A stretch of 24,000 nucleotides of DNA from positions 179,423-203,422 of the forward strand of contig FOXT01000006.1 in NCBI GenBank assembly GCA_900115795.1. Direction: 5' to 3'. The stretch comes from Lachnospiraceae bacterium XBB1006. Its GTDB lineage: Bacteria; Bacillota; Clostridia; Lachnospirales; Lachnospiraceae. Of the stretch, positions 6,308 to 24,000 are shown piece by piece. The notes under the pieces are model-generated. The model worked only from the letters and a program-made list of their open reading frames with translations, made no database searches and was not told the origin of the DNA. The position numbers and the translations under genes are program-made. The first letter of the stretch is position 1; each line of letters starts with the position of its first letter.

Positions 6308-6591
6308 GAACCTAGGGTGTTGATATTATTTTATCTCGGCTTCATATTTCCGGATGGCCTGACGGATAATATATAAAACTTCGCCGTTTATCGAACGGCC
6401 ATTAAAGGAGATGAATTAGTATGATTAAGCAAAATGAAGCACCTGAAAACCAGATATTTCCAATAATATGGAGGCGGTATATGTTAGTATAGTGCGCATT
6501 GTAAAAGTTAATTTTGAAATATAAAAATACAGAGGGTCGGCAAGATTACTTGCTTTAGAGTGAAGTTTTATAGGAAAAGTGCCGGAAATGG

Positions 6592-6625
6592 TTGACAATA
6601 GTGGAAATTACACCTATGCTATAAG
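6592..6625 (+). promoter_or_regulatory. orphan sigma-A-like promoter with no downstream ORF
   Basis: TTGACA (6592-6597) is followed by a 17-nt spacer and TATGCT (6615-6620). An overlapping TGcTATAAG extended -10 is also present. No ORF of 60 aa or more follows before the terminator at 7176-7218. Confidence 0.5.
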
Positions 6626-6776
6626 TTGATTCTCAACGGAGGGTGTGATATTTTAATAACCGCTGAGCGCCGCACCGCATAATAAGCGGGGTTGAGGCAG
6701 TTTTTACGGATTAAATAATGATTTAATCTGTCATTTTGGGTTATGCGCCGCAAAGTGGGTCTGGGTTCGAAAAGGA

Positions 6777-7128
6777 TTACGTGTCATATACTATTTTTTC
6801 ATTTTTACCCGTAGGCTTCGGTTATGTTTTTCCGAATTTGTACGGGTAAATTCTGCAAAATTACAATTTACCCGTAGGCTTCGGTTATGCTTTTCCGAAT
6901 TTGTACGGGTAAATTCTGCAAAATTACAATTTACCCGTAGGCTGCGGGTGTGCTTTTTCAAATTCCTACGGGTGGATTCTTATAAGCGCATATCCACCCG
7001 TAGATTTTCCATAATTCATAGCAAATGGCTACGTGTAAAGAACGTGATTTCGTCGCAATACCCGTAAAGTTTTTCGTTTCACAAACTTCTGTTACGGGCG
7101 ATTTCTTCATTGGTGGAATCCACCCGTA
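6777..7128 (+). repeat. multi-hairpin tandem element, copy 1 (five complete inverted-repeat units plus terminal half-arms, ~63-bp period)
   Basis: The left-arm core ACCCGTA starts at 6807, 6870, 6933, 6996, 7060 and 7122, giving periods of 63, 63, 63, 64 and 62. Each left arm is matched 16-29 nt downstream by TACGGGT or TACGTGT. Units 1 and 2 (6804-6850 and 6867-6913) differ at a single base. Confidence 0.9.
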
Positions 7129-7175
7129 TTTTCTTATTAGAGTAGAGAAACAACTGGATATTTTATCTACAGTTT

Positions 7176-7218
7176 AAAACGGCATCACCAGTTTTGCGGG
7201 CTGGAGATGCCGTTTTTT
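7176..7218. terminator. rho-independent terminator (bidirectional shape)
   Basis: AACGGCATCACCAG (7178-7191) pairs with CTGGAGATGCCGTT (7201-7214) with one mismatch and a 9-nt loop. Six T residues follow, and AAAA precedes. Confidence 0.75.
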
Positions 7219-7309
7219 GTGCGCTTTTCGGCGTACAAGATTACAAATAAGCGTGGATTGTAGATGCCTAGCGGTGTAGCAATAAATGGTATATACAATG
7301 ATGTGACGA

Positions 7310-7480
7310 TTAATTATTATTACTTGTAGATTCCATGTTTTCTAATGCGTATTCACAGGCTTGTAAGACGAAGCTTGAAAAAGTAACATTCTGATTTTCT
7401 AACACTTTCTCGATTCTGTCAATGAGTGACAGGGGAAAGCGAAAATGAAAATAGGCATGCCTGCGCCGGCTGTGTGACTT
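7310..7480 (-). pseudogene. ribbon-helix-helix (CopG/antitoxin-like) gene remnant lacking a start codon
   Basis: The minus-strand frame reads ...HFRFPLSLIDRIEKVLENQNVTFSSFVLQACEYALENMESTSNNN* with the stop at 7312-7310. This is a beta-strand plus two helices, the RHH pattern. There is no ATG, GTG or TTG between the upstream in-frame stop and the RHH strand. The 5' end runs into the palindromic element at 7445-7579. Confidence 0.35.
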
Positions 7481-7579
7481 TTAGGCAACGTCGGTACTTA
7501 GCACCTATGGTGCTTAGTACCGTTACGTTGGCGCTGAGCGAAAGCGCTCACACAGTGGCGCAGGTACGCCTATTCATTT
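7445..7579. repeat. MITE-like long imperfect palindrome with two internal hairpins (three-stem element)
   Basis: The outer arms are AATAGGCATGCCTGCGCCGGCTGTGTGA (7450-7477) and TCACACAGTGGCGCAGGTACGCCTATT (7548-7574). The inner hairpins lie at 7487-7529 and 7535-7550 (TGAGCG-AAAG-CGCTCA). The right arm abuts and overlaps the TGA stop of the TetR gene. Confidence 0.6.
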
Positions 7580-8155
7580 TTTTATCCGAAAATGCTCCAT
7601 CATAATCGGCATAAATTTTTTACTAAATCCGGACAAGGAATAGGCTCCCTTATTCAGGCACCATTCCGTTACCATAGAACGTTCGCACATTGCATAGTAA
7701 TTGGCGATCTCGTGCGCCGGCATGGTGTCAAGGATTTCGCCCCGTCGTTGTCCGTCGGATATAATGCGGGTGAGCAGGGTGTAGTAGGTTCTGGTATAAT
7801 CCAGAAGATGGCGCCGACCCGCAGCCACCAATTGCGTAGAATACATGGAGGCCAGAATATCAATGTTGATTTTGTCCTCCACAAGCTTATGTGCTTCGAA
7901 GTTTAAGTACATCAGTTTATCAAAACAATTCATATTCGGATTCATAGTGGCATCCAGTTCTTCATAGAATTCATCAAACACTTCCGAAAGAGAATTCAAT
8001 AATTCATCCTTGGTACGAAAGTAGTAGTAAAAGGAACCTTTTGAGGTTCCGGATTGTTCGATGATTTCATCAACGGTTGTTTCCGAATAGCCTTTTTCAT
8101 AGAATAAACGCCATGCAGTGGAAACAATTTTGCTCTTTACAGTTTTTTCCTTCAT
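7574..8155 (-). CDS. TetR/AcrR family transcriptional regulator
   Basis: The N-terminal HTH is IVSTAWRLFYEKGYSETTVDEIIEQSGTSKGSFYYYFRTKDELL. The ORF reaches 8161, but AGGAG spacing favours the ATG at 8155. The gene starts about 10-15 nt after the GRE stop, so it is probably co-transcribed. Confidence 0.9.
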   Translation of the reverse strand: MKEKTVKSKIVSTAWRLFYEKGYSETTVDEIIEQSGTSKGSFYYYFRTKDELLNSLSEVFDEFYEELDATMNPNMNCFDKLMYLNFEAHKLVEDKINIDILASMYSTQLVAAGRRHLLDYTRTYYTLLTRIISDGQRRGEILDTMPAHEIANYYAMCERSMVTEWCLNKGAYSLSGFSKKFMPIMMEHFRIKK

Positions 8156-8170
8156 ATCCATAACTCCTAT

Positions 8171-10546
8171 TTACTGAAATGATTGTTCGGTTCGTTCAAT
8201 AATCTCATCCTGCAACGCTTTACTTAAATTGCGGAAGTGATCGGAATAACCGGCAACGCGCACAATCAAATCCTTATATTCCTCAGGATGCTTCTGTGCA
8301 TCAAGCAGGGTTTGACGATCAATCACGTTAAACTGAATATGATGACCATCCATGTTAAAGTACGTGCGAATTAAGTTTGCCATTTGGTTTAGCCCTTCTT
8401 CACCGGCAACAACACTTGGTGTGAATTTCTGGTTCAGCAGGGTACCACCGGTTTGCAGATGATCCATTTTGGAACAGGACTTAATAACGGAAGTCGGACC
8501 GTTTACATCGGCACCTTTTTCCGGAGAAATGCCTTCTGAAACCGGTTTATGTGCAAGACGCCCATTGGGACTTGCCATCATGACATCGCCAAAATACACA
8601 TGGCAGGTGGTTGGTAACATGTTAATGCGGTAGGTACCGCCAAGCATATTGGGACGTCCGGATACCTGACTCTTATAGTAAGCAAAAATATCGCGCATAA
8701 TGGAATCGGCATAGTCGTCGTCGTTTCCATATTTCGGTGTTTTGTTGCGTACCAGATTCAGAATACGGTCGTGGCCCTCAAAGTTGTCCTTCAAAGCCTG
8801 CATCAATTCTTCCATGGTAAAGTTTTTCTTATCGTAAACATTGTATTTTACAGCAGCGATGCAATCGGTAATGGTGCCAATACCGACACCTTGCAAATAT
8901 TTGGTGTTGTAGCGGGCACCACCACCATTATAGTCTTTTCCGCGACTTATGCAGTCGTTGGTAATGGTTGATAAAAATGGTACCGGCATTTGCTCCGCAT
9001 ATATTTTCTCGATTACGTTACTTCCTTTTAATTTAATGTTGATAAAATAAGTGACCTGTTTCTTGTAAGCATCCATCAATTCATCGAAGGTCTTAAAATC
9101 TGTCGCATGTCCTAACGATAGACCCAATTGTCGCTTGGCAACAGGGTCATATCCATTGTTTAATGTTAATTCAAAAATTTTGGGCAAATTAAAATAACCG
9201 GTTAAAATGTATGCTTCGTTTCCAAAGGCACCGGTTTCTACACAACCGCTGGTGCCGCCTAAGCGGGCATCATCCAAGGTCTTGCCGGCATTCATCAATT
9301 CTTGAATAATGGCCTCTGTATTATAAAAGGCGGGCTGCCCCCAGCCTTTTCTAGAGATTTCACAGGCACGTTTTAAAAACTTCTGCGGTGTTTTGCGACT
9401 AATCTGCACATTGGAACTTGGCTGCAGTAGTTTCATCTCATCCATGCAATCAAGAATTAAGTAGCTGACAGCATTCACACCGTCTTCGCCCTGTGGGGTA
9501 ATACCTCCGGTATTTAAGTTAGCAAAATCCGTGTAGGTACTACTTTCTTTTAAGGTGATGCCTACCTTTGGTGGGGCAGGCTGGTTGTTGAATTTCACCC
9601 ATAAGCACTCCAAAAGTTCCAAAGCCTTATCATCGTTCAAGATACCTTCCTCGGTATCTTTTATATAAAATGGATTTAAATGTTGGTCTAAACGTCCTGG
9701 ACTATAGGCATCCCAAGGATTTAATTCGCTGGTAACCCCAAGGTGTACGAACCAGTACATCTGGATTGCCTGCCAATATGTTTCCGGTTTATGAGCCGGA
9801 ACAACCTCGCAGTTTGCAGCGATTTGCAAAAGCTCAGCTTTACGGACTTCGTCATTTTCTTTAGCAGCCAATTCTCTTGCGTAAGAAGCATAACGCTGAC
9901 CAAGAATGATGATGGCCTCGCAGGCAAGCTTCATGCCATTTAATTCGTTCTTCTTATCAAGCGCCTCCGGGTCGTTTAGAAAATCCAGGTTGGTAATGGC
10001 TTCTTCAATCTCATCAATGCGATCCGCAAACCCTTTTTCATAAATTTTGCCGGAGCCAACGGTATGGCCCGGACCACGCTGTTCCATAAATTCCGTAAAA
10101 ATGCCGCATTCATAAGCAGCTTTCCATTCCGGTGTCATCTGACGAAGAATCTGGTTACGGATACTGCGTTTGTCCCAATAGGGAATCATCATGGTTTCCT
10201 GTGTCCGATAATCTTCCTCTTTTACCTTAAAACTAATAAGTTCCCGGTCGTTCATAACATGCATGTCTTCAATGCTGTGACAACAAAGCTCCGGAAAGGT
10301 TGGTGCTGCCTGGGGAGAGTCTCCCTTTTCGCCGACAATGAGCTCACCTTCCCCGATGTAAAGCGTTTTGGTGGAAAAATAGTCTTTTAATACCTGACCA
10401 CGTAACTCCGGAATCGACAGATATCCTTCGTATTGCTGATAGGTTTTGGTTTCGCTGATGGCGCGCTCTAAGTCAATGTGTGGTTGTGTATCCACGCTTA
10501 GGCGGCGAAGCGACTGAATTCGTTTATTCATTCCACGTTCTTCCAT
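8171..10546 (-). CDS. hypD: glycyl radical enzyme, probable trans-4-hydroxy-L-proline dehydratase
   Basis: 791 aa. The C-terminal glycyl-radical motif is LIVRVAGYSDHF. The thiyl loop GGTSGCVETG (Cys about 435, Glu about 437) belongs to the dehydratase/eliminase GRE class. A GRE activase lies directly upstream and proC lies nearby on the same strand. From memory, His161, Asp279, Ser335 and Phe341 and blocks such as ECLWVKFNNQPAPPKVGITLKESSTYTDFAN match HypD. The GRE call is about 0.95 confident; the HypD subtype needs an alignment. Confidence 0.7.
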   Translation of the reverse strand: MEERGMNKRIQSLRRLSVDTQPHIDLERAISETKTYQQYEGYLSIPELRGQVLKDYFSTKTLYIGEGELIVGEKGDSPQAAPTFPELCCHSIEDMHVMNDRELISFKVKEEDYRTQETMMIPYWDKRSIRNQILRQMTPEWKAAYECGIFTEFMEQRGPGHTVGSGKIYEKGFADRIDEIEEAITNLDFLNDPEALDKKNELNGMKLACEAIIILGQRYASYARELAAKENDEVRKAELLQIAANCEVVPAHKPETYWQAIQMYWFVHLGVTSELNPWDAYSPGRLDQHLNPFYIKDTEEGILNDDKALELLECLWVKFNNQPAPPKVGITLKESSTYTDFANLNTGGITPQGEDGVNAVSYLILDCMDEMKLLQPSSNVQISRKTPQKFLKRACEISRKGWGQPAFYNTEAIIQELMNAGKTLDDARLGGTSGCVETGAFGNEAYILTGYFNLPKIFELTLNNGYDPVAKRQLGLSLGHATDFKTFDELMDAYKKQVTYFINIKLKGSNVIEKIYAEQMPVPFLSTITNDCISRGKDYNGGGARYNTKYLQGVGIGTITDCIAAVKYNVYDKKNFTMEELMQALKDNFEGHDRILNLVRNKTPKYGNDDDYADSIMRDIFAYYKSQVSGRPNMLGGTYRINMLPTTCHVYFGDVMMASPNGRLAHKPVSEGISPEKGADVNGPTSVIKSCSKMDHLQTGGTLLNQKFTPSVVAGEEGLNQMANLIRTYFNMDGHHIQFNVIDRQTLLDAQKHPEEYKDLIVRVAGYSDHFRNLSKALQDEIIERTEQSFQ

Positions 10547-10563
10547 TTTGCTACCTCCTCTTA

Positions 10564-11472
10564 TTAACCTCCAATATATACCTTGTGATAACCGTTCTCT
10601 TTAAAAAGAGCAACGAACGTATCCATTTCTTCTGCTGTTGGTGCGTGCAAATTCTCACCGGGATACACAATTCCCATGCGAGCGTATTTGGCGCTGCCGG
10701 TTTTGTGGTAGGGCAGGAGATTGACCTGGGCTACCTGAATTTGCTTTTCCTTTAAAAAGCGAAGGATGTCAGCCATGGCTTCCCGATTGCCGTTTACTTC
10801 CCGAATGACCGGTATACGAATGTAAATGCGCGCACCGGCAGCACTTAACTTCTCAAGATTGGACAAAATCAGAGAAGGGTCGGTACCGATGTAAGCCTTA
10901 TGCAAAGCAACATCCGTTGTCTTAATATCATATAAAAAGGTATCGATATAGGGTAATAATCGTTCATAATTGCTATAGGGTGCCTGTCCGCAGGTGTCAA
11001 CAAAGATGGAAATTCCATAACGATATAATTTCTTACACAAAGCCTCTAAAAAGTCCATATCGGCAGTCATAACCTCGCCACCGGAGAGGGTAACACCGCC
11101 GCCGGATTGCTCGTAGAACATTTCATCTTTCTTAATCTGTGAAAAAAGTTCTTCTACTGTATAGGGGGTTCCTACCAGTTCGCGTAGATTATAATTGCAT
11201 GCATCAATGCAAGCACCGCAGTTCTTGCATAAGTCACGATTAAGATATGCCTTTTGTTGAACAAGTGTTATGGCCGATTCTTTGCATGCATAGATGCACT
11301 GCCCACAACCGACACAGTTGTCTTTGTGAAATAGAAGCTCCGGATGATAATGCTGTGTTTCCGGATTGTGACACCATTTACAGGAAAGGGGACACCCCTT
11401 AAAAAAAACGGTGGTGCGAATCCCGTCACCATCGTGAATAGAATATTTCTGTATACTGGTTATGATACTCAA
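10564..11472 (-). CDS. glycyl radical enzyme activating protein (radical SAM)
   Basis: The radical SAM cluster motif is CPLSCKWCHNPE. Two ferredoxin-type clusters follow: CVGCGQCIYAC and CKNCGACIDAC. The ORF extends to 11514, but GGGAGGGAG lies 6 nt before the TTG at 11472. That start gives about 302 aa beginning MSIITSIQKYSIHDG, the usual activase N-terminus. Confidence 0.9.
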   Translation of the reverse strand: MSIITSIQKYSIHDGDGIRTTVFFKGCPLSCKWCHNPETQHYHPELLFHKDNCVGCGQCIYACKESAITLVQQKAYLNRDLCKNCGACIDACNYNLRELVGTPYTVEELFSQIKKDEMFYEQSGGGVTLSGGEVMTADMDFLEALCKKLYRYGISIFVDTCGQAPYSNYERLLPYIDTFLYDIKTTDVALHKAYIGTDPSLILSNLEKLSAAGARIYIRIPVIREVNGNREAMADILRFLKEKQIQVAQVNLLPYHKTGSAKYARMGIVYPGENLHAPTAEEMDTFVALFKENGYHKVYIGG

Positions 11473-11551
11473 TGAATACTCCCTCCCAAATACATAGTCG
11501 TTCATGTGTGGCATGGTAGATGGGGTTTATGTTGGTAGCCACACATGAAAC

Positions 11552-11578
11552 TTATAGACTAAAGTCTAGACTATAGTA
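11552..11578. promoter_or_regulatory. overlapping perfect palindromes, candidate TetR operator
   Basis: TAGACT-AA-AGTCTA (11555-11568) overlaps AGTCTAGACT (11563-11572). Both lie just downstream of the -10 box of the activase-GRE-TetR promoter. Confidence 0.45.
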
Positions 11579-11580
11579 CA

Positions 11581-11609
11581 AATATAGCATGGTTTCCAAA
11601 ATCTGTCAA
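11581..11609 (-). promoter_or_regulatory. sigma-A promoter of the activase-GRE-TetR operon
   Basis: On the minus strand, TTGACA (11609-11604) is followed by a 17-nt spacer and TATATT (11586-11581). Confidence 0.65.
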
Positions 11610-11654
11610 TGATTAAAAACAAATAATCGTCACAAAATGCGCGGGTTTCCGCTA

Positions 11655-11684
11655 TTGACGGAAGAATGTCACTCATGGTAAAAT
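11655..11684 (+). promoter_or_regulatory. sigma-A promoter of the membrane protein gene
   Basis: TTGACG (11655-11660) is followed by an 18-nt spacer and the extended -10 TGgTAAAAT (11676-11684). The RBS AAGGAG and the ATG at 11724 follow. Confidence 0.6.
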
Positions 11685-11723
11685 TGTTTTGAAATAAAAA
11701 CAATTTAAAAAGGAGAAAAGAGT

Positions 11724-12761
11724 ATGTTTTTTCAAGTGTATGGTGATGGCGCCGGATGGCAACTGATTGGATGGCTCCTTGTGTTTGCCGGTTTGGTCAT
11801 CGTAAATGAAATTGAACGTCGCAGCAAGGCCGGAGGAATCTTTTTCTTCGTCATTGTACCACTTGCGTTGACTGCGTATTTCATTGCAATTTATGTGTGT
11901 GCTGCAAGCGGAGCGTCTTGGGCATTGAATAATCCAACCTATGTTCACATGAGCAGTTGGTTCCATTATGCAAAATTGTATGCAGCAACAGCCGGATGTA
12001 TTGGCTTTATGATGCTGAAGTACAAGTGGGGCATTGGAAAGAAAGAATGGTTCAAACCGTTCCCGTTTATTATCGTTGCGATTAACATTTTAATTGCAGT
12101 AGGTAGTGATTTTGAGTCCGGAATCCGTGGTGCAATGGCACTTGCTGACACCGGTAGCCGTTGGTGGTTATCTTCCGAAAACGTATGGTTATACGGTGGA
12201 TGGTGGAACTGGGCGAATGGTATTGCCGGAATCCTTAACATTTTCTGTATGACAGGATGGTGGGGAATCTACAGTTCTAAGAAGAAGGACGATATGTTGT
12301 GGCCGGATATGACCTGGTGCTTCATTATTGCATATGATTTGTGGAACTTTGAGTATACATACAACAATCTCACTACCCATGCGTGGTACTGCGGCCTGGC
12401 ACTTTTACTTGCACCAACCTTTGCCAATGCTTTATGGAACAAAGGCGGTTGGATCCAGAATCGTGCCAACACCTTAGCAACCTGGTGTATGTTTGCACAG
12501 GTATTTCCAATGTTCCAGGATTACAGCCGGTTTACAACCATTCCGGTATTATACGCAGATGGATTTATGGATCCGACAAAGCATCCAACGGCTGCAAATC
12601 CAACCATGCAGGGTGTGGTAGCAGTCATTGCTTTAGCAGCAAATGTTTTGTGCCTTGCTGTTATTATCAAGCGTTCTATGGAACAGAAGAAGAATCCGTA
12701 CCGCAACGAAATCTTTACTGATCAGAAGGATTTCCAGATTGCAATGGAACGTGCAGAATAA
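11724..12761 (+). CDS. polytopic Trp-rich integral membrane protein, unknown function
   Basis: 345 aa with about 8-9 hydrophobic segments. It is unusually rich in Trp (GGWWNWANG, TGWWGIY, WPDMTWCF). A good RBS is present. I recognise no transporter family signature. Confidence 0.8.
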   Translation: MFFQVYGDGAGWQLIGWLLVFAGLVIVNEIERRSKAGGIFFFVIVPLALTAYFIAIYVCAASGASWALNNPTYVHMSSWFHYAKLYAATAGCIGFMMLKYKWGIGKKEWFKPFPFIIVAINILIAVGSDFESGIRGAMALADTGSRWWLSSENVWLYGGWWNWANGIAGILNIFCMTGWWGIYSSKKKDDMLWPDMTWCFIIAYDLWNFEYTYNNLTTHAWYCGLALLLAPTFANALWNKGGWIQNRANTLATWCMFAQVFPMFQDYSRFTTIPVLYADGFMDPTKHPTAANPTMQGVVAVIALAANVLCLAVIIKRSMEQKKNPYRNEIFTDQKDFQIAMERAE

Positions 12762-12860
12762 GCAAAAGCGCAGAGGATCAGTTGCTTTTAGCTTCCGGAA
12801 TCTCCGGGGAAGAGTTGGCGATGGCAAAAGAGGTAATCAAAGAATCACAGGGAATGAGAT

Positions 12861-12909
12861 AAAAAGTGAGAGGCTAATGGTTGAAAGAACAACGGTTAGC
12901 CTCTTTTTT
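12861..12909. terminator. bidirectional rho-independent terminator between convergent genes
   Basis: GAGGCTAA (12870-12877) pairs with TTAGCCTC (12896-12903). Six T residues follow and AAAAA precedes. Confidence 0.7.
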
Positions 12910-12911
12910 AA

Positions 12912-14033
12912 TTAATGATTGTCAGTAAAAGCAGCTATCCGTACATCGCTTCGCCCATTGTTATAGAAAACTCCGGTAAGGTAATCATCATCCGTACAAT
13001 TGGAAATGGCTGATAAACGACCGTGGGAAAGGTTGCCATTTGCTGTGTAATACTGATAGGTAAGGGTTGCCTGCTCCGCATGGGAAGATAAGTCCATCTT
13101 CGCCTTCGGGTAATATATCAATACCATGTCGGAGCTTGTGGAAAGTTGGTATCCTTGCGCAATTTGTTTGGCTTTTATGAAACCGTTTCCGTTATACGCT
13201 TCCGGATTATCTACGGAGGCCGGCGTTAAACTGACAGGGGCACCGTCAAAGGTGCAAAGAATAATTCCATCCTGTTCGGTCCGGTGAATGACGGTGTATT
13301 GGCTGTCACGCTGGGCACTGTAAAGAAAATCCGATGTGTGCAGACCAAGAACGTTATGCCATGCCCCGGGTTTTCCCGGAATATAGCGATATTTTACGGC
13401 AGCCATATCCTCGGCAGAGCGATAGTTTACCACGTTAATATTCGTAACATGCAAAGCCTGATAAAGGGTATTTACTTGCGAGGAGAGGAAAGCCAAATTC
13501 TTATTTACCAGTGAAACAACGGCGGAAGAGTGGCCGTTTTTTGATGGATACAGAACGTCCTGTAAGTTGCTTCCATCAAAATAGTCATAAACAAGCCCGT
13601 TGTGTTCCGACATCCCCGGATGTAATCCATAGCCAAGGAGTACTTCGGAAGGCAGTAAGCCGGTAACGTTCTGAAAATGATCGGTAAAAGCTGCTACAAT
13701 TTCATCGTGTTGGTAGTCGTCGTAGCCTTTGGTCGTCCTCTTTTTACCGGAAATGGCTACGGTGAAGGTCTTGTGGTGGTAGCTCATGGTGACATATAGT
13801 TCGCCTGTTGGCATAGGGGTAAAATCGGGAACTGGACCGGAACCCGGATAGATGTGTTCGCATTCCTTAACATCGGCATCAAAGCCGTATTTTTCCTTGA
13901 TATACTCTTTTGCATTTTTCGACCCCTGCTTAATATAGTGATTTATTAACGCTTTTTCTTCCTTACTGTAGCCGCAGGCTGACAGTAGAATACATAGAAG
14001 TCCGATGCAGAGTAAAAAATGATTTTTTTTCAT
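12912..14033 (-). CDS. lipoprotein, unknown function
   Basis: 373 aa. The signal peptide carries a lipobox (CILLSAC-GY). The RBS is GGGAG. I recognise no catalytic motif. Confidence 0.8.
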   Translation of the reverse strand: MKKNHFLLCIGLLCILLSACGYSKEEKALINHYIKQGSKNAKEYIKEKYGFDADVKECEHIYPGSGPVPDFTPMPTGELYVTMSYHHKTFTVAISGKKRTTKGYDDYQHDEIVAAFTDHFQNVTGLLPSEVLLGYGLHPGMSEHNGLVYDYFDGSNLQDVLYPSKNGHSSAVVSLVNKNLAFLSSQVNTLYQALHVTNINVVNYRSAEDMAAVKYRYIPGKPGAWHNVLGLHTSDFLYSAQRDSQYTVIHRTEQDGIILCTFDGAPVSLTPASVDNPEAYNGNGFIKAKQIAQGYQLSTSSDMVLIYYPKAKMDLSSHAEQATLTYQYYTANGNLSHGRLSAISNCTDDDYLTGVFYNNGRSDVRIAAFTDNH

Positions 14034-16629: not shown

Positions 16630-17346
16630 ATGAAGTCAACCTTTCGGCAGGAGATTATACCACTCATTGGCATCGTCCTGATTTCGGGATTGGCGATGGG
16701 AGGATTGCAGCTTTTAAAAGGCATTAGTCAGATGCCTCTACAGCCATCGGTATGGGTGGCAGGGGAGCGAAGTGATCCCACGCTTGGTCGTGGGATTGCG
16801 AGTATTGTATATGGTGTGCTATCGGTTTGTTTTCTTCGCATTGCGATGCGGAGAGAGAAACGATTATGGGAAGATGGAAATACCATATTTTTCTTTTCGG
16901 CAGCAGGAGGTATGTTGGCGTGGGTTGTGATTGGCGAACTATCCTGGCATTTTGGATTGCCGGTCACTACCAAAGAAGGAATGGTTATGACAACAAATTT
17001 CTCACGTATCGAAAGTATACAGGGGGTATGGATGTTTTTCCTGCTTTTGGGAATCGTTATTCACATGGTAAAACGCGGGATGATTGCGGTGACGCTGTAT
17101 GTGGGAACCTTTTTGGGAAACTGGTACGGACATCTTTGTATGATTGCGACCTACCCAATGGCAATGTGCCTGGGATGCAGGCTTTCTATGGCCAGTTGGT
17201 ATCGCGCAGTGGGATTAGGCAATGCCATTGTTTTTGGGGCAGTGGGGCTTTGGCTTTGGAGAAGAAAGACGAAGTACCTTGGTTCTGTGTGCATGTATGT
17301 TGCATTGGGAACGTTATTTTTTGGAACGATTATGGGAAAAGTATAA
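16630..17346 (+). CDS. integral membrane protein, unknown function
   Basis: 238 aa with about 6-7 hydrophobic helices. The strong RBS GGAGGAG lies 9 nt upstream. The overlapping ORF 16827..17411 in another frame has the Cys/Arg/Trp-rich look of an off-frame artefact. Confidence 0.75.
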   Translation: MKSTFRQEIIPLIGIVLISGLAMGGLQLLKGISQMPLQPSVWVAGERSDPTLGRGIASIVYGVLSVCFLRIAMRREKRLWEDGNTIFFFSAAGGMLAWVVIGELSWHFGLPVTTKEGMVMTTNFSRIESIQGVWMFFLLLGIVIHMVKRGMIAVTLYVGTFLGNWYGHLCMIATYPMAMCLGCRLSMASWYRAVGLGNAIVFGAVGLWLWRRKTKYLGSVCMYVALGTLFFGTIMGKV

Positions 17347-17583
17347 ATGATTTTACGACCCGTCATATCCTTTTTGCGGTTTTTGCAAGGGATGTAGCGG
17401 GTCGTAAGTAGTTTATGACTATTTATTTATGCTTCTTTTTTAGAAAGTGACAAAGTTGTAAAGTTAAACCTGCGAAAATGTCTATTGTTTTTGCTTTTCG
17501 GTATCTTTAGTATTAATGTTAGGTATTCTACACGGTGAGCGTGTGTTCCAACAAATAATACATATAGGAAAAGGAGATTAAGT

Positions 17584-19863
17584 ATGAGTATTAGCAAGCT
17601 TGAAGAAGCAATTGAGCAGAGTTTTAGCAAAACGGTGTATGATGAAATCAACAACGTGATTGGTGGGGATGAAGAAAACAAAGATCAAAAACTGACACTA
17701 TTACTTCCGGGTATTGCCCTTGCTAAGGAAGACTTCGAATATGATTACGAAGCACATGAAGAAAAGGGACCAACCGTAGAGGCAAATGAATCGAGATTGG
17801 TGAATAAGCTTTACGATAAATTCGATTTGAATAATGCAGATAATGGACGGATGTTACCGCACCAGTACAAGAGTGCGTTGGATGTTTTGACACCGAAGCT
17901 GAACGTAGAAATTGCAAAATCCAAAAATGCGCTGCGTGATTTGTTACTTACCAAATATCCGTATAAATTTAAGGATGAACAAGGAAACATCAAGGATGAT
18001 GACAACACGTTTCAGGAGGTGTTTTTCGCATTATACAATGATTACGTGAAAGCGTTGAAAGAATGGACGGAGGAACAGAATAAGAAGCGAGCTGAAATAT
18101 ATGATAAAGCCTATGATGAGGAAATAAAACGACTGACAGAAGAAGATGATGAAAAAGGCATCAAGAAACTGAATGTTAAGAAAAATGACGAGTATCTGAG
18201 ATGGTTTGAAACGGAAGCGTATTCAAGATTTACAGAATTAAACCAGACTATGGCAAATCTGCTGTCTGTTTTCTCAGAAAATGATATGAAGATTATTGAA
18301 GGTATTCTAGATAGTGGTTCCGGTGCAGAATTACAGGAAGCCAGGGAAACGTTGCGTAACCTTAGAAAACTTACCCCGGATGGTGCGTACGTTTATCCGG
18401 TAAAACTCAATCCAACCGGATGGTTTAAGTACCTGGATTCTAGTTTTACCTACGTTGATCTTTTAGAAGATCCCAATATGTTGCGGGCAAAAATGGAGGA
18501 GCTGGGCAGAAAGAAAATCGCAACAGTAGCAAGATATGAGTTGATTGCAAAAGCGATTCCAAATGATGAGACATTGGAGGCTGCGAAAAAATCGTTGACG
18601 GAAGCAAGGCAGGCTTGTTCAGAGGCATTTGACAATATATGTACCGTAGGATCGGAAAGCTTTGGCACTTTTGTGGCAGAGACAACCAAGTTAGTCATTG
18701 GCATTTATACGGATCCTACGTTGGTTGGAACTTCTAAGGAAAACGTAGCAGAGAAGGTTGCAGAAAAGAAGCCGGACATGGATAAGAAGGCTACGGAGTT
18801 GGTTAAAGAGCCGTTAATGAAATCGGCGGAAGCCGAGGTTGCGGAAAATAAAGATGGTGAGGTTGCACAAAAACTTGAAGCTAAAAAGAAAGAAAAGAAC
18901 TCAGGCATCAGTACAGTTGGAGATTTGGTAAATGGATTCGTCAAAAGTATTACGGATATAGGTACTAATGTAACAAAGAGCCTTGGAGAAATGAACCTTG
19001 CATTGGCGTCTTATATGGACACATTAGAAGAAAATGAGAAATTGAAATTAAATAAAGGATTGGAACTTGCTGCAGCAGATTTGAAAAAGGAGATTGCTCT
19101 TATTGATGAGGAAATGAAGGATGTTAAGAGTAGGTTGGATGTTGCAAGCAACATGATTGGGAAGGAAGAAGTGAATGTTGCAGCGCCACCGGAGGGGTAT
19201 GCAACAATTCTCATTGACCACAGCTGTAAGGATGTTCATGAGGAAGACTATACTCACACGTACGTTTCCCATAGTTCCTCTAGTGCAGGTTTCCTTTGCT
19301 TTAAGAAGCGTAAGAGTAAAACCACGACCGATTCCTATTCGCGGAAGTTATTTGTGGATAAAGAATCCAGCATGCAGATAGGAATGAACGTGGCGAAAGT
19401 GGGAATCGAACGCGAGTGGTTTAACCCGGGAGTATTTTTGTTATCCGAAAATATGTATAATCTAACGGATACGAAGTATACCAAGTTATTACCATGTTTC
19501 CCAACGGCGATGCTAATTGGACGGGATATTACCATCAAACAGAAGGTTAAAAATGCAAGGATGTTTAATTATGTCCACAATTCCGTTACGGAAATACAAA
19601 ATTCCGGTAGCTACGTATTTTACAATAAATCCAGTGGCTCTAAGGATTCATCTACCTATTCGTATTATGATGCAGAGGAAGAGGCTTGGATTATTATTAC
19701 AAAGATTGGCACACCACAGGTAATTGGTTTTTACCTGCAGGATCTTCCGGAGGACAAGAGCAAAAACTACAAAGTTTCTAATGATCCGGATAACATTAGA
19801 AAGTTCATTGAAGAGTATATGAATGTTATTAAGAAGCGTATGGCAGAAAATAAAAAGAATTAA
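17584..19863 (+). CDS. large uncharacterised protein, paralog 1 of a tandem pair
   Basis: 759 aa with RBS AAAGGAG. It has no signal peptide, TM segment, P-loop or metal or nuclease motif. The N-terminal domain is helical, the centre is Lys/Glu-rich coiled-coil-like, and the C-terminal domain is beta-rich with MNVAKVGIEREWFNPGVF. Confidence 0.85.
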   Translation: MSISKLEEAIEQSFSKTVYDEINNVIGGDEENKDQKLTLLLPGIALAKEDFEYDYEAHEEKGPTVEANESRLVNKLYDKFDLNNADNGRMLPHQYKSALDVLTPKLNVEIAKSKNALRDLLLTKYPYKFKDEQGNIKDDDNTFQEVFFALYNDYVKALKEWTEEQNKKRAEIYDKAYDEEIKRLTEEDDEKGIKKLNVKKNDEYLRWFETEAYSRFTELNQTMANLLSVFSENDMKIIEGILDSGSGAELQEARETLRNLRKLTPDGAYVYPVKLNPTGWFKYLDSSFTYVDLLEDPNMLRAKMEELGRKKIATVARYELIAKAIPNDETLEAAKKSLTEARQACSEAFDNICTVGSESFGTFVAETTKLVIGIYTDPTLVGTSKENVAEKVAEKKPDMDKKATELVKEPLMKSAEAEVAENKDGEVAQKLEAKKKEKNSGISTVGDLVNGFVKSITDIGTNVTKSLGEMNLALASYMDTLEENEKLKLNKGLELAAADLKKEIALIDEEMKDVKSRLDVASNMIGKEEVNVAAPPEGYATILIDHSCKDVHEEDYTHTYVSHSSSSAGFLCFKKRKSKTTTDSYSRKLFVDKESSMQIGMNVAKVGIEREWFNPGVFLLSENMYNLTDTKYTKLLPCFPTAMLIGRDITIKQKVKNARMFNYVHNSVTEIQNSGSYVFYNKSSGSKDSSTYSYYDAEEEAWIIITKIGTPQVIGFYLQDLPEDKSKNYKVSNDPDNIRKFIEEYMNVIKKRMAENKKN

Positions 19864-19892
19864 TCTGACAAACCATAGAAGGAGTTGCAAAC

Positions 19893-22154
19893 ATGGCTGA
19901 TGAAAAAGAAACACAGAAAGCGAACCTTCAAAAACTTGTGTATGTGTTAGGAAAGGTCAGAGATATGAAAAAAGAAGCGGAAACGGTGGAAGAGGAACAA
20001 AATTCTTTTGTCACAGAATTTTACAATGCAATTAATTCCCAAATAGGCGGAAACAACGCGGAGCAGTTTCTGTGCCTTTTGTTGCCGGGGATTATTTTGA
20101 ACAGGGAAGATTATGAATACGAAGGCATGAAAGGACCTGTGATAGAGGCGAACGAATCCCGTCTGGCGAACAAAATGTTTGAACCGTGCCAGATTACCAA
20201 TACCGATAATGGAAGAACGTTGCCTTATCAGTATAAGATGGCATTGGATATGCTGACGCCAAGATTGAACCGCAAGTTGGCTTTACAAAAGAATAAGTTG
20301 AGAAGACTTTTGATGTCTAAATATCCTTATAATTTTGGGGAAGAGGAGATGGAGTACACTTTGCTTGAGGTGTATGCAAAACTATACGATGAATACATGG
20401 ATGAGTTGTATCGCTGGAAAGTGAAATTGTCCGAGATAAAGGATGCGCTGCGCATGGCGCATCCTGACCCGGAAGAATTCGAAAACGAATATCTGAAATG
20501 GTATGAGGACAATGCAGGAGATTACCTGGATTCCATTAATGAGAAAAAATCGAAATTGCTTTCCGTTTTTTCGCCCAATGACATGAAGATTTTAGAGGGA
20601 ATTCTTGACAGTGGTTGCGGTGCAGAACTCCAGGAGGCAAGGCAGAATCTGTACAACCTTAGAAAAATAACACCGAACGGAGGTTATGTATATCCTGTTA
20701 GTTTTGAACCATCCAACTGGTTTGAAATGATTGGGACGTCCTTCACGCAGGCAGAACTTATGGACAGTCCGGACAAAATTGCGGAAAAAATACAACGGCT
20801 TTCTACAAGAAGGGCGGCACTTTATGCAAGTATGTGCGATTTGGCTCCGCTAATAGATGAATCTTTTCGGGAAACAAGCGAAAAAATCAAGAAAAGCAAA
20901 CAGGACATCGCGGCTAAATTGGAGAGGGTAGTGAGCAAAAATTTGCTTACGCCGAAAGGACGAACACCCCGTAAGCCCATTGTGTTATCGGAGACCGGAA
21001 AAAATCGCCTGATAGCCAAGGTGGCGTTGCCGACTTTGGAAATTAAGATTGGCACCAAGGTGCCGCTTTCTAAAAGAACCTTTACCCGATTGATGGAAGG
21101 GGCGATGCTAAAAGAAAAGGTTTCGCTATCGGACGAAGCTATCGCAATACTGAATTCTCTGAGTGATGAGTTAGGCAAGCATACCGAATTACAAAAGGAA
21201 AACCTGCTGCTATCACAAAAGCTTACAAATGATGTGCTGAGGTTTGTGGAAGAAAAGGGCAAAGCAGACAAGGGAATGAAACGCTATTTTAAGATGCTGA
21301 AACCAATCAAAGAAGAACTGGCTACGTTAGATGAGGAGATAGAAGAATGGAATAAGCTATTGAATGTGTCGACGGTTGTTCATGAGAATCGTTCTGATGA
21401 TGCACTGGTGGAGGAACTCCTTTTGCCACGGGTACCAAAGGGTTTTACGAAGATAGAGTTTGAAATGGATGCGGATTCCTTGGATAAGCAGTCGGAAATT
21501 GTGAAATCGTCATCCACAATCACCAAAGGGCAAAAGTTTCTTTTTAATGGGCAAAGAAGCAGGGGACAGTTTTTAAATGAGAGTCTGACGGAGATGATTG
21601 AGAAATCCAAATGCAGTAAGATTCATGTGAGCATGAACGTTGCCAAGGTTGGGATTGTACGGGAATGGTTTAATCCGGGTGTGTTTTCTTTGACGGGGAA
21701 TATGTATCGGTTATGTAGCGAACTAATAGCGCCGAAAACCAATGGGGTGGAATCTATGAGTGATTACATTCGAGGCATGAAAGGTATGGTGTTTCCGTGT
21801 TACCCTGTTTCCTTTGTACTTGCAAGGGATATGCAGATTCGTTTCCAATATAACCGAAAAGTTTCGGAAGATACACAGAAAATATTTGATAAGCATGCGA
21901 ACTCCAACGGCGGATTTTTGTTTTTCCGTGGTAGGGATGAATACGGAAAGTCGGATCAGGCGGGAGTTCACACCTATTATTCCGACCAGACGGTGACGTT
22001 GAAATTCGATACAACCCAGGTGATAGGCTATTACCTACAGGCGACAGCCGCAGATAAAAGCACCTATATTGACGATTGCAGTGAGGAACAGGAGAAAGAT
22101 TACTCTATGTCGGAGTTTACCGAGCACTATCGACAAATTATTAGTGGGCGGTAA
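19893..22154 (+). CDS. large uncharacterised protein, paralog 2 of a tandem pair
   Basis: 753 aa with RBS GAAGGAG, starting 29 nt after paralog 1. It shares these blocks with paralog 1: LLLPGI..(R/K)ED(Y/F)EY, GP.(I/V)EANESRL, DNGR.LP.QYK.ALD.LTP.LN, LLSVFS.NDMKI.EGILDSG.GAELQEAR, MNVAKVGI.REWFNPGVF and QVIG.YLQ. Confidence 0.85.
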   Translation: MADEKETQKANLQKLVYVLGKVRDMKKEAETVEEEQNSFVTEFYNAINSQIGGNNAEQFLCLLLPGIILNREDYEYEGMKGPVIEANESRLANKMFEPCQITNTDNGRTLPYQYKMALDMLTPRLNRKLALQKNKLRRLLMSKYPYNFGEEEMEYTLLEVYAKLYDEYMDELYRWKVKLSEIKDALRMAHPDPEEFENEYLKWYEDNAGDYLDSINEKKSKLLSVFSPNDMKILEGILDSGCGAELQEARQNLYNLRKITPNGGYVYPVSFEPSNWFEMIGTSFTQAELMDSPDKIAEKIQRLSTRRAALYASMCDLAPLIDESFRETSEKIKKSKQDIAAKLERVVSKNLLTPKGRTPRKPIVLSETGKNRLIAKVALPTLEIKIGTKVPLSKRTFTRLMEGAMLKEKVSLSDEAIAILNSLSDELGKHTELQKENLLLSQKLTNDVLRFVEEKGKADKGMKRYFKMLKPIKEELATLDEEIEEWNKLLNVSTVVHENRSDDALVEELLLPRVPKGFTKIEFEMDADSLDKQSEIVKSSSTITKGQKFLFNGQRSRGQFLNESLTEMIEKSKCSKIHVSMNVAKVGIVREWFNPGVFSLTGNMYRLCSELIAPKTNGVESMSDYIRGMKGMVFPCYPVSFVLARDMQIRFQYNRKVSEDTQKIFDKHANSNGGFLFFRGRDEYGKSDQAGVHTYYSDQTVTLKFDTTQVIGYYLQATAADKSTYIDDCSEEQEKDYSMSEFTEHYRQIISGR

Positions 22155-22160
22155 GGTAAT

Positions 22161-22272
22161 CATAAAGTGCGGTAGAGCCCGTATTTACGGGCTTTGCTGC
22201 ATTTTTGCTATTTCATCTTGGAGCGTCTGATCGTGTCAAATTTGGAAAAACTGGTGCACAAAACTGGGGGAG
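22161..22272 (+). repeat. direct repeat R1 (~115 bp)
   Basis: CATAAAGTGCGGTAGAGCCCGTATTTACGGGCTTTGCTGCATTTTTGCTATTTCATC...TCAAATTTGGAAAAACTGGTGCACAAAAC recurs at 22738-22853 with scattered substitutions and a small internal duplication. Confidence 0.85.
22168..22206 (+). terminator. probable terminator of the paralog operon
   Basis: An imperfect long stem pairs GCGGTAGAGCCCGTA with TACGGGCTTTGCTGC; the core AGCCCGT/ACGGGCT lies at 22176-22193. ATTTTT follows. Confidence 0.55.
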
Positions 22273-22277: not shown

Positions 22278-22622
22278 TCTTACGGGGCGTATGCGGTTTT
22301 CTCTATTTTCACACGTAGGCTTTCGTTGTGCTTTTTCTGATTCTTACGTGTGAATTTTCGATTGCTAAATTTGACCCGTAGTCCTCTAGAATGCTTTCCC
22401 ATCTTCTTACGGGTTATCCAAAGAAAATGCCATTTCACACGTAATCGTTCTGCTCCTTCTTACGTGTGAATTCTTGCAGACATAAATCCACACGTAGCTT
22501 TTCGAAAATCCATCTCTAAGGCTTACGTGTGAAACCGGTGTATTCGCCGCCTTACCCGTAAAGTTTTTCGTTTCACAAATTTCTGCTACGGGTGATTTCC
22601 ACAGCGATGTAGTTTACACGTA
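22278..22622 (+). repeat. multi-hairpin tandem element, copy 2 (colinear with copy 1)
   Basis: The left-arm core AC(A/C)CGTA starts at 22310, 22373, 22436, 22489, 22553 and 22615, giving periods of 63, 63, 53, 64 and 62. Each is matched by TACG(T/G)GT downstream. Unit E (22551-22594) is nearly identical to unit 5 of copy 1 (7060-7100). Confidence 0.9.
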
Positions 22623-22737
22623 ATTTCCATAAGAAAACGCTTTCCGAGCTTTGGGCTTTCGCCCAATGGGTAGGATAAAATAATCAGAAAAATTAGCACT
22701 CACCTCTTGAAGTAATCCGGTGGATTTCGACTTGTTT

Positions 22738-22853
22738 CATAAAGTGCTGTAGATCCCGTATTTACTGGCTTTGCGGCATTTTTACTATTTCATCGGAGAA
22801 CGTCCGAAGGTATCAAATTTGGAAAAATTGGTGTCAAAATTGGTACACAAAAC
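22738..22853 (+). repeat. direct repeat R2 (degenerate copy of R1)
   Basis: It aligns with R1 by eye over its whole length. The terminator stem is degraded here (GATCCCGTATTTACTGGCT). Confidence 0.85.
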
Positions 22854-22914
22854 GAGCCTGCAAATGGATGTGGAAGTGGCTATGTGTATTCGGAAATTAA
22901 AAACAAAAAATCTG

Positions 22915-22943
22915 TTGATAAATTTTCACGTAGGTGGTATACT
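22915..22943 (+). promoter_or_regulatory. sigma-A promoter of the ATPase gene
   Basis: TTGATA (22915-22920) is followed by a 17-nt spacer and TATACT (22938-22943), preceded by TGg as an extended -10. The spacer contains TTTCACGTAGG, which resembles a hairpin-element left arm. Confidence 0.65.
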
Positions 22944-23000
22944 ATCTGCGTAAAAGAATTTATTAACGGAAAATTCGTTTTTAATTTTGGAGGGCTGATA

Positions 23001-24000
23001 ATGAAACTATTACGAATCGTGGCAGATGGATTGCCACTCTTTAGAGAAAAACTGGATATATGTTTTTATGCCCAGCAGAGAGTGTCCGAGGAGCAGCAAG
23101 AACTTCTTTGCCCGGTGTTTTCGAATATATACTTAAATTCTGCCAATGGTATTATTGGTATTAATGCTTCCGGTAAGACATCTGTGTTGAAGGTAATACT
23201 TTTAGCGCTGGGGATTATTAATAACGAACCAATCAACCACATCGAGACCAAAGATATTCTGGGTAATGCAGAGAAAGCTGTGTTAGATATTTATTTCTAC
23301 TCTGCGTCAGGTAAGGAGATATGCCGTTTGGAAACTACTATTACATCAAACAAAACCAAGACGGAGGGTACTGTTTATAGTATATTATCAGAACGGATTT
23401 GGTCAAAGCAGATAGAAGAGATTACTACGCGAAAAGCGTTGCTTGATTTTGGTGATAGGGAGCCTATTATGCAAAGAAGTGGGCAGGAGGATTTTTTGCC
23501 GGATGATGTCAGCATCATGATTGCTCGAAATAAGCGAACAGGAGAGAATTTGCGGGTTGTGAATTTGCTTAGATTCACCAACAACAATGTGCTTCCTCTT
23601 TCCGACAATATTCCACCGGAGGTTATAACCTATCTGGATCCGACGATTGAGCGATTACAGTTTGAGGAAAAAGAACAAAAGACAGTCATATATCTCAAAT
23701 TCAAAGGAAAGGAAGAGATTGTGCTGAATAATCCTGCGCAATTAAATAATTATTTATCCTCCGGTACAGTGAAGGGAATCATTACCTTTACGCTGGCGCG
23801 GGAAGTGTTGCAGACGGGAGGATATATGATTGTTGATGAGTTGGAGAATCACTTTAACAAGGAAATTGTAACCACGTTGATGCGATTCTTTATGGATAAC
23901 AAGCTGAATAAGTATGGTGGTACATTGGTTTTTTCAACGCATTATCCGGAGCTGTTGGATGAGTACGACAGAAATGACAGTATCTATATTATTCGAAACA
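23001..24000 (+). CDS. AAA_21/ABC-type (SMC-like) ATPase, 5' partial, of the kind found in abortive-infection and defence systems
   Basis: This gene is absent from the ORF track because it runs off the window. I translated it myself from the ATG at 23001, with RBS GGAGGG 7 nt upstream. It is open for 333 codons to the window end. Walker A is GINASGKTSVLK, the signature-like motif is LSSGTVKG, Walker B is GYMIVDELENHF and the H-loop is VFSTHYPELL. Confidence 0.8.
   Translation, partial: MKLLRIVADGLPLFREKLDICFYAQQRVSEEQQELLCPVFSNIYLNSANGIIGINASGKTSVLKVILLALGIINNEPINHIETKDILGNAEKAVLDIYFYSASGKEICRLETTITSNKTKTEGTVYSILSERIWSKQIEEITTRKALLDFGDREPIMQRSGQEDFLPDDVSIMIARNKRTGENLRVVNLLRFTNNNVLPLSDNIPPEVITYLDPTIERLQFEEKEQKTVIYLKFKGKEEIVLNNPAQLNNYLSSGTVKGIITFTLAREVLQTGGYMIVDELENHFNKEIVTTLMRFFMDNKLNKYGGTLVFSTHYPELLDEYDRNDSIYIIRN

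Follow-up and report, generated by a model that had tools for sequence, protein, structure and literature searches.

Two adjacent paralogous genes of Lachnospiraceae bacterium XBB1006 represent an undescribed family of large soluble proteins with a possible role in membrane permeabilisation

In this study, we report the analysis of a stretch of 24,000 nucleotides (nt) from Lachnospiraceae bacterium XBB1006 (assembly GCA_900115795.1, contig FOXT01000006.1, positions 179,423 to 203,422; the whole stretch is hereafter called the window) and, within it, of two adjacent genes, A and B, which form an operon of their own. Their products belong to a large, undescribed family of proteins of about 750 amino acids (aa) that are made in the cytoplasm. 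In other genomes the family gene is mostly present in single copy, and in many cases it is followed by a gene from one of several unrelated families, among which cell-wall hydrolases recur. The explanation that we favour, tentatively and as possible rather than probable, is that these are soluble proteins that would permeabilise a membrane for enzymes devoid of export signals, the pair in the window being a heteromeric variant without an enzyme.

The open reading frames (ORFs) of the window agreed with what a first-pass annotation, made from the sequence alone, had described, namely two homologous genes separated by a gap of 29 nt and each preceded by a ribosome-binding site (Table 1). The two proteins were 33% identical from end to end (332 bits, E 7e-107, BLASTP), in an alignment that covered all five shared blocks quoted in that annotation, and as judged from sequence this likeness is far above chance. 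Protein B was identical (100%) to a hypothetical protein recorded for Lachnospiraceae bacterium XBB1006. Protein A kept the residues that are invariant in the family (E69, G88, W161, P277, W280, R610, W612, and G715). In the most conserved motif of the family, located in the C-terminal part of A, the family alignment showed M601, K605, I608, R610, W612-G616, and F618 to be invariant. The structured terminator claimed upstream of the operon was supported by RNA folding; this hairpin is likely the terminator of the preceding membrane-protein gene and the 5' boundary of the operon. Given this hairpin before the genes and the 19-pair terminator after them, A and B constitute a self-contained unit.

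It must be noted that, by all the libraries searched, A and B fall in no known family at the level of sequence, in agreement with the earlier view that they have no recognisable domain or catalytic signature. No signal peptide was found in either protein, nor any transmembrane segment, the highest 19-residue Kyte-Doolittle means being 0.96 and 1.2, with none exceeding 1.2. The HExxH motif and a conserved P-loop were absent from both, and the sole match to [AG]xxxxGK[ST], at residue 680 of B, was inside a variable Ser-rich loop. The best Pfam matches (E 0.024-0.9) were all under the cut-offs. NCBIfam and the PADLOC models gave no matches, and PHROGs gave nothing beyond a match to the coiled coil of a tape-measure protein (E 0.014). 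Searches of PDB sequences with the single proteins, with a full-length profile and with a profile of the C-terminal domain returned coiled-coil noise or nothing, and none of about 300 listed homologs had a precomputed Pfam domain. With respect to particular families, there was no Pfam match to SMC_N or AAA, and the Walker A/B and signature motifs were absent from both proteins; no match at E <= 1 was obtained to Gasdermin (Pfam PF04598 and the PADLOC bacterial gasdermin models); and the trafficking domains of polymorphic toxins were absent, LXG reaching only E 0.1, under the cut-off. Literature searches for a described equivalent of the family yielded nothing relevant.

The family is widely distributed. 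Word-indexed searches produced about 170-190 matches each, all annotated as hypothetical, and an exhaustive profile search yielded 892 clusters (at 50% identity) at E <= 1e-3, with 300 at E <= 1e-30. A total of 64 genomic loci were found. They included Clostridia (Ruminococcus, Oscillospiraceae, Lachnospiraceae, and others), other Firmicutes (Erysipelothrix, Lysinibacillus, Leuconostoc, and Streptococcaceae), Fibrobacter, Bacteroides, Prevotella, Treponema, Spirochaetaceae, Helicobacter, Desulfovibrionaceae, Anaerobiospirillum, and the enterobacteria Kluyvera, Atlantibacter, and Salmonella enterica subsp. diarizonae. A distant branch takes in the basidiomycete Tulasnella, in which contig WSUI01000941.1 (locus L076) carries two intron-containing family paralogs in tandem, at 1-2411 and 6001-9166. 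Given the introns and the second paralog, the Tulasnella gene is a genuine eukaryotic gene, and the two tandem copies therefore reflect an independent tandem duplication in a eukaryote. A phage or plasmid origin was considered and rejected, since tblastn gave no match in a collection of 50,697 phage records or in a plasmid collection, and a single marginal match of 55 residues in the 2.9 million viral contigs of IMG/VR. Additionally, the Kluyvera operon gave no blastn match in 5,426 Escherichia coli genomes. The flanking genes varied from locus to locus and were often housekeeping genes, at times integrases or genes like those of integrative and conjugative elements (ICE); these varying flanks and the spread of the family indicate a mobile accessory module.

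When every ORF in the sampled loci was scanned with hidden Markov models, pairs were found in 14 loci, the window and 13 others from Firmicutes and Fibrobacter, and single copies in about 49. Tandem pairs of A-type and B-type genes were present in Ruminococcus, Oscillospiraceae, other Clostridia, and Fibrobacter. In a neighbour-joining tree the first genes formed one clade (A-type) and the second genes another (B-type), with parallel internal branching, and the B-type was nearer than the A-type to the single-copy members. Orthologs of B were 51-52% identical to it, as compared with 33% between A and B, and the family-invariant residues were retained by both types. Since the two clades are parallel and orthologs are closer to each other than A is to B, a single old duplication took place, after which the pair was inherited or transferred as a unit. 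As far as these comparisons go, the co-inherited A and B probably assemble as a hetero-oligomer. The first-pass annotation had deduced a hetero-oligomeric machine from the retention of tandem paralogs; the conserved pairs and congruent trees fit that deduction, but pairing is not obligate in the family.

In place of a second paralog, what recurs beside the family genes is a partner slot. Among the 49 single-copy loci for which sufficient sequence was available downstream, 29 had a same-strand gene beginning no more than 50 nt past the stop codon, in some cases overlapping it, versus just 2 of the 14 paired loci. While the earlier annotation had held that single genes without conserved partners would speak against a dedicated system, the single genes do have this conserved slot, whose occupant is variable and often a cell-wall hydrolase. 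The slot genes encode proteins of about 150-360 aa from unrelated families, the recognisable ones being for the most part peptidoglycan hydrolases. These hydrolases are a PF11860 muramidase in five enterobacterial genomes (three of Kluyvera, one of Atlantibacter and, as a split gene, Salmonella), Amidase_3, a GH108 fragment, and an Amidase_5/NlpC_P60 enzyme that carries a ZoocinA target-recognition domain. In the Kluyvera locus L008, the family gene is at 10001-12301 and the muramidase gene at 12314-12934. The slot also holds DUF6765, SUKH/SMI1_KNR4, one protein weakly resembling a C39-like papain fold and another that is weakly ACD-like, and several clusters without a family assignment, the largest with 10 members. 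In other loci, Amidase_2 and GH25 genes were directly upstream of the family gene, and the enterobacterial loci encode, also upstream, a 302-aa protein that weakly resembles a permuted papain-like amidase. The most frequent Pfam family in the 97 immediate same-strand neighbours was PF11860, a catalytic domain of phage lysins (10.1101/2022.01.10.475687), and peptidoglycan hydrolases were the only functional theme to recur across unrelated taxa.

The partner enzymes and the fusions had no signal peptide; signal or transmembrane segments were predicted only in unrelated flanking genes (one in Fibrobacter resembling an outer membrane protein, and others in L055, L067, and L071). No small holin-like gene with transmembrane segments was found in the slot. 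A caspase-like, CHAT or subtilisin partner was likewise not found and no cleavage site was evident; weakly papain-like neighbours occur in some relatives. The slot modules also occur within family proteins. Thus, protein P0130 begins with a muramidase 51% identical to the partners that enterobacteria encode separately, P0264 has at its N-terminus a domain homologous (E 1e-8) to the largest of the partner clusters without a family assignment, and three family proteins have N-terminal astacin and matrixin metallopeptidases. Such fusions are strong genomic evidence for a physical partnership between the family protein and the product of the slot gene.

Several features of individual slots were also observed. 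A partner family of about 205 aa follows the family gene in ten loci (L016, L023, L025, L033, L038, L041, L046, L050, L058, and L060) and has invariant Cys, His, and Asn positions in the motif SW...C...GGHV...LLPIC..HN. An HNH-like fold was suspected, but no match was obtained in Pfam, in PHROGs or in a PDB profile search. No PDB sequence match was obtained for the DUF6765 partner or for those of L073 and L045. The SUKH/SMI1_KNR4 gene was confined to two loci, overlapping the stop codon of the family gene in L007 and recurring in L030. In the Salmonella enterica subsp. diarizonae locus (L040, 6202-9811) the family gene is intact and its flanking partners look decayed, the muramidase being split into ORFs of 94 and 103 aa and the upstream 302-aa gene shortened to 195 aa. 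In one clade (L017, L024, L028, L045, L047, L068, and L075), a conserved protein of 100-155 aa, with a helix-turn-helix (HTH)-like pattern recognised by eye, is encoded directly upstream and is a possible dedicated regulator.

An AlphaFold model of B, built from an alignment of 143 sequences that included the distant and fungal branch, had a mean predicted local distance difference test (pLDDT) of 87.8 and a predicted template modelling score (pTM) of 0.81. An earlier model of A (43 sequences) was too poor (pLDDT 64), and with it Foldseek gave coiled coils only. The model of B consists of an N-terminal alpha/beta part, helical hairpins, a C-terminal beta-rich domain with three long strands (574-589, 636-653, and 692-717), and a final helix. 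The N-terminal part comprises strand 58-69, helices, and short strands, and contains the conserved blocks LLLPGI, GPxxEANESRLANK, DNGRxLPxQY, and ILDSGxGAELQEAR. The helical hairpins are the least conserved and most length-variable region of the family (majority fraction 0.09-0.41), with insertions that reach about 200 aa in homologs of about 950 aa. In the model, therefore, the family fold would be a conserved alpha/beta head made from the N- and C-terminal regions, with a variable coiled-coil stalk between them.

Two Ser/Thr-rich segments of low charge and low pLDDT are found in the C-terminal domain (Table 1). The first has 38% Ser plus Thr, versus 17% for the entire family alignment, and is in the model a candidate membrane-inserting segment; the second has, across the family, 40% Ser plus Thr and 58% Ser, Thr, Gly, and Asn. 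With their aromatic/Gly cores, these segments could be membrane-inserting loops or hairpins. The Foldseek comparison that had been recommended at the outset was run on the model of B and returned no significant PDB or viral fold match. The best PDB match of the C-terminal domain was a bacterial gasdermin (7n52_C, E 0.043, probability 0.57, template modelling (TM) score 0.26), which is not significant and was the only non-helical one among the top matches; we take this model-based likeness as a lead only. Foldseek matches to alpha-pore-forming toxins involved helices only, with TM scores <= 0.21 (SmhB, E 0.038; XaxB, 0.36; AhlB, 0.48; PaxB, 0.71), and the matches to Tc proteins, likewise helical, had E above 0.03.

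In attention to the above, the mechanism that we tentatively favour is one in which the family protein would open a membrane and give signal-less enzymes access to the other side, most likely from the cytoplasm outwards. Endolysin-type hydrolases would in this way reach the wall and cause lysis or release, following the logic of holin or gasdermin pores. The partner enzymes need a route across the membrane because they have no export signals and the wall is otherwise out of their reach; and since the hydrolases could not otherwise reach peptidoglycan, the candidate that suggests itself for the breach is the constant protein whose gene directly precedes theirs or is joined to it. Most genomes would use one family gene with an enzyme encoded after it or as part of it. 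In the clade of the window, the old duplication would have given rise to co-inherited A-type and B-type proteins with no dedicated enzyme gene, and the output of A plus B would be membrane permeabilisation itself. As it would work in Gram-positive, Gram-negative, spirochaete, and fungal backgrounds, in unrelated genomic contexts and without common accessory genes, the activity would be self-sufficient and independent of the type of envelope. The weak gasdermin match of the model would point, weakly, toward membrane permeabilisation.

A number of observations weigh against this explanation. No significant match to any pore-former was found in sequence or fold, neither A nor B contains a transmembrane segment that is hydrophobic or clearly amphipathic, and the alternation of hydrophobic residues seen in classic beta-barrel stems is missing from the Ser-rich arms. 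Phages, plasmids, and viral contigs are essentially devoid of the family, which is therefore not a phage lysis gene. Many of the partners could not be assigned to a characterised family (the 10-member cluster, DUF6765, and the weakly C39-like and ACD-like proteins) and some, such as SUKH/SMI1_KNR4, are not enzymes, so that a cell-wall hydrolase partner covers only part of the slot. In the operon of the window, as in other paired loci, the hydrolase is missing, and what is proposed for A and B would be carried over from relatives with 33-40% sequence identity. Finally, the fused astacin and matrixin peptidases and the SUKH neighbour suit an exported toxin better than self-lysis.

Action from outside is the foremost alternative, which we regard as rather unlikely. 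The family would then be the binding and translocation (B) component of an AB-type toxin or bacteriocin, freed by the lysis of some producers, that carries or admits into rival bacteria or into eukaryotic cells a variable effector, such as a cell-wall hydrolase, a peptidase or a phospholipase-like protein, and A plus B would be, by analogy, a bicomponent cytolysin like XaxAB/YaxAB. A variable effector on a constant scaffold, as a gene or as an N-terminal fusion, is the logic of polymorphic and AB toxins. The astacin and matrixin peptidases and the weakly ACD-like partner resemble extracellular or anti-eukaryotic effectors, the ZoocinA target-recognition domain is known from a lytic exoenzyme, and the SUKH/SMI1_KNR4 genes of two loci belong to a family typical of toxin immunity; in most loci, however, a candidate immunity gene after the partner is absent. 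The patchy distribution in dense gut and rumen communities, resembling that left by horizontal gene transfer, is also in keeping with a toxin, although intron-containing and signal-less fungal homologs are ill-suited to interbacterial warfare. Two neighbouring paralogs that have long helical hairpins are reminiscent of bicomponent alpha-pore-forming toxins, with fold matches that are non-significant, and there was no significant fold match to any toxin translocation domain. Moreover, no component has a signal peptide, no locus has secretion-system genes, and a muramidase applied from outside could not reach the enterobacterial wall unless the outer membrane were also breached.

Many defence systems have as their standard architecture one large constant protein whose effector is exchanged or fused, and the family might serve defence or cell suicide as a cytoplasmic sensor or scaffold, similar to Lamassu (an SMC-like LmuB with variable LmuA effectors), that senses a trigger (e.g., phage) and activates or releases the adjacent effector without a pore of its own. 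We consider this unlikely. A head built from both termini and an antiparallel coiled coil do resemble the topology of SMC/Rad50, but ATPase and other nucleotide-binding motifs are missing and there was no PADLOC match. Integrases or ICE-like genes adjoin some loci and an HTH-like gene is found upstream in one clade, whereas most loci are among housekeeping genes; an AAA_21 ATPase gene is present downstream in the window, but it is beyond the terminator of B and absent from all homologous loci. Activation within the cytoplasm would leave muramidases and amidases off their substrate, and a membrane lesion would still be needed. More improbable still is a housekeeping regulator or scaffold of autolysins acting in growth, division, sporulation or vesicle formation, like the PcsB, CwlO, RipA, and EnvC-type systems, which would account for the proximity or fusion to peptidoglycan hydrolases, the long coiled coils, a weak Foldseek match to the N-terminal coiled coil of RipA (E 0.43), and a LytR_cpsA_psr gene 1.6 kb upstream in the window. 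Known systems of this type are exported or membrane-anchored and conserved in core positions, while the family is sporadic, moves between phyla, has neighbouring genes that are not conserved, is absent from most genomes, including all the E. coli genomes searched by blastn, and is present in fungi, which have no peptidoglycan. Among the roles offered by the first-pass annotation, namely a defence effector, a toxin or a membrane-remodelling complex, the toxin or membrane-active direction is the best supported, and the defence role finds no support in the PADLOC models.

A bolder form of the permeabilisation explanation, which we regard as rather unlikely, is that the family constitutes a self-sufficient class of soluble-to-membrane gateways in bacteria and fungi, maybe a giant and distant relative of gasdermins, passing folded signal-less enzymes from the cytoplasmic side in a lysis or release that depends on neither holins nor phages, with A/B as its first heteromeric form. 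If membrane opening is correct, a soluble 750-aa protein would do the job of a holin or gasdermin, which would be a new way of breaching a membrane, spread horizontally through gut and rumen Firmicutes, Fibrobacter, Bacteroidetes, spirochaetes, and enterobacteria and present in fungi too. This would bear on how large signal-less proteins and enzymes exit from bacteria without a dedicated secretion system, on how far the repertoire of cell-death pore-formers extends past gasdermins, and on the agents of lysis or antagonism in rumen and gut communities. The family may turn out to be a pore-former or lysis device of a new kind; whatever its mechanism, a confident structure model, a conserved slot for partners, and evidence from fusions are now available for a large unannotated family.

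Table 1. Location of the A/B operon, its signals, the mapped protein regions, and a glycyl-radical enzyme cluster in the window.
Feature	Position	Strand	Remarks
Hairpin followed by a U-rich stretch	~17352..17409	+	RNA fold -36.7 kcal/mol, z = -7.5 against shuffles
Shine-Dalgarno AGGAG of gene A	17572..17576	+	Sequence reading; 7 nt 5' of the ATG at 17584
Gene A	17584..19863	+	759 aa; divergent A-type paralog, always first in pairs
Most conserved family motif in A, MNVAKVGIEREWFNPGVF	19384..19437	+	Codons of residues 601-618
Shine-Dalgarno AGGAG of gene B	19880..19884	+	Within the intergenic gap; about 7-8 nt 5' of the ATG
Gene B	19893..22154	+	753 aa; B-type paralog, always second in pairs
Conserved N-terminal part of the head, B residues 40-292	20010..20768	+	AlphaFold model, pLDDT mostly >90; conservation profile
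Stalk of long antiparallel helical hairpins, B residues 293-498	20769..21386	+	AlphaFold model
Conserved C-terminal beta-rich domain, B residues 515-720	21435..22052	+	AlphaFold model
First Ser/Thr-rich loop, B residues 527-573	21471..21611	+	pLDDT ~58; aromatic/Gly core FLFNG (B), GFLCF (A)
Motif MNVAKVGIVREWFNPGVF in B	21633..21686	+	Codons of residues 581-598; holds family-invariant R590 and W592
Second Ser/Thr/Gly-rich loop, B residues 671-700	21903..21992	+	GGFLFF core
Intrinsic terminator	22164..22205	+	19-pair stem then T run, 10 nt past the B stop codon; closes the operon on its 3' side
TetR regulator	7574-8161	-	
PFL-like glycyl-radical enzyme	8171-10546	-	791 aa
Radical-SAM activase of the glycyl-radical enzyme	10564-11514	-	
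DUF5692 membrane protein	11724-12761	+	Divergent

With respect to the surroundings of the operon, the first-pass annotation had pointed to repeats and a defence-type ATPase gene downstream. Both exist, but they are not linked to the pair, from which the ATPase gene is separated by a strong terminator and about 850 nt; as part of the system it was rejected, for the reasons given above. This AAA_21 or ABC-type ATPase ORF (PF13304, E 8e-13) occupies 23001-24000 (+) and runs past the end of the window. It is preceded by a sigma-70-like promoter at 22915-22943 and a 31-nt inverted repeat at 22894-22987, and it may be the first gene of a defence-type module. Between B and this ORF, a 97-nt direct repeat (86% identity) is present at 22160-22256 and 22737-22833, 577 nt apart, with a terminator hairpin in each copy. 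The first copy is the terminator of gene B, and the two bracket a non-coding segment, which might be the trace left by a small element that was inserted or duplicated. Palindromic units of about 45 nt (TTCACACGTAGG...CTTACGTGTGAA) are clustered at 22308-22623, where TTCACACGTAR occurs in 7 copies, versus 0.5 expected in the entire window. A related 63-nt unit (TTTACCCGTAGGCTTCGG...TACGGGTAAA) forms 2.8 tandem repeats at 6804-6980, within an ORF-free gap of 1.3 kb. These units look like an intergenic repeat family of the repetitive extragenic palindromic (REP) or miniature inverted-repeat transposable element (MITE) type. Rfam gave no RNA family in the window, repeats included.

Directly upstream of the operon, at 16630-17346 (+), a 238-aa protein without a Pfam match has about five hydrophobic segments and is a multi-pass membrane protein. 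It was rejected as a conserved partner or immunity protein, being separated from the operon by a terminator and unrelated to the 238-aa gene that follows the pair of L003. A 373-aa protein at 12912-14033 (-) had no Pfam match and is not conserved beside A/B homologs. The same lack of conservation beside homologs was found for the other upstream genes of the window, i.e., those of the membrane protein, UPF0158, LytR_cpsA_psr, a weak GDSL match, and the glycyl-radical enzyme cluster (7574-12761, Table 1).

When the family is compared with known systems, the SMC/Rad50-type defence proteins (Lamassu LmuB) share with it a head made from both termini, a long antiparallel coiled coil, and a variable partner effector, but the family has no Walker A/B or signature motifs and its head includes a beta domain whose loops are Ser-rich. 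Modular bacteriocins and polymorphic toxins, among which pesticin and colicin M deliver wall-targeting enzymes, are similar in their constant scaffold with swappable modules, muramidases included, in the occasional SUKH/SMI1_KNR4 neighbour, and in their patchy distribution. Unlike the C-terminal tip of polymorphic toxins, the enzyme is here encoded by its own gene downstream or fused at the N-terminus; no domain known for translocation, receptor binding or secretion is present, and there is mostly no immunity gene.

Holin-endolysin cassettes and the type 10 secretion systems derived from them (TcdE/TcdL, the muramidase system of typhoid toxin, and the Tc release of Yersinia) resemble many single-copy relatives in that a gene proposed here to breach the membrane is directly upstream of a signal-less hydrolase, whose family is freely swapped (muramidase, amidase or endopeptidase). 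A holin, however, is small and has one to four transmembrane helices, whereas the family protein is soluble, has about 750 aa and lacks any such helix. In addition, spanins are absent, the family is not represented in phage and viral collections, the enzyme can be fused to the N-terminus of the family protein, and the window has a second paralog instead of a hydrolase. Gasdermins are likewise cytosolic, without signal peptide, and present in bacteria and fungi. As a possible resemblance, the model of B has a beta-sheet domain with two poorly ordered segments that might form membrane hairpins and a large helical region that could auto-inhibit, and peptidase-like neighbours or fusions are found at some loci. 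The family protein is, however, three times the size of a bacterial gasdermin, and its partners are mostly wall hydrolases rather than caspase-like, CHAT or subtilisin activators.

For the A plus B pair, the closest analogy is with the bicomponent and tripartite alpha-pore-forming toxins (XaxAB/YaxAB/PaxAB and the ClyA superfamily Hbl, Nhe, Smh, and Ahl). Unlike these toxins, A and B have no hydrophobic foot or beta-tongue and are twice as long, their fold matches are weak and involve helices only, the conserved part is the alpha/beta head and not a helical tip, and most family members are in single copy. In common with them, and by analogy only, A and B are two adjacent, co-inherited, and related subunit genes, whose products would have long helical hairpins and no classical signal peptide, as is the case for the alpha-pore-forming toxins, the subunits of which must combine to form the pore.

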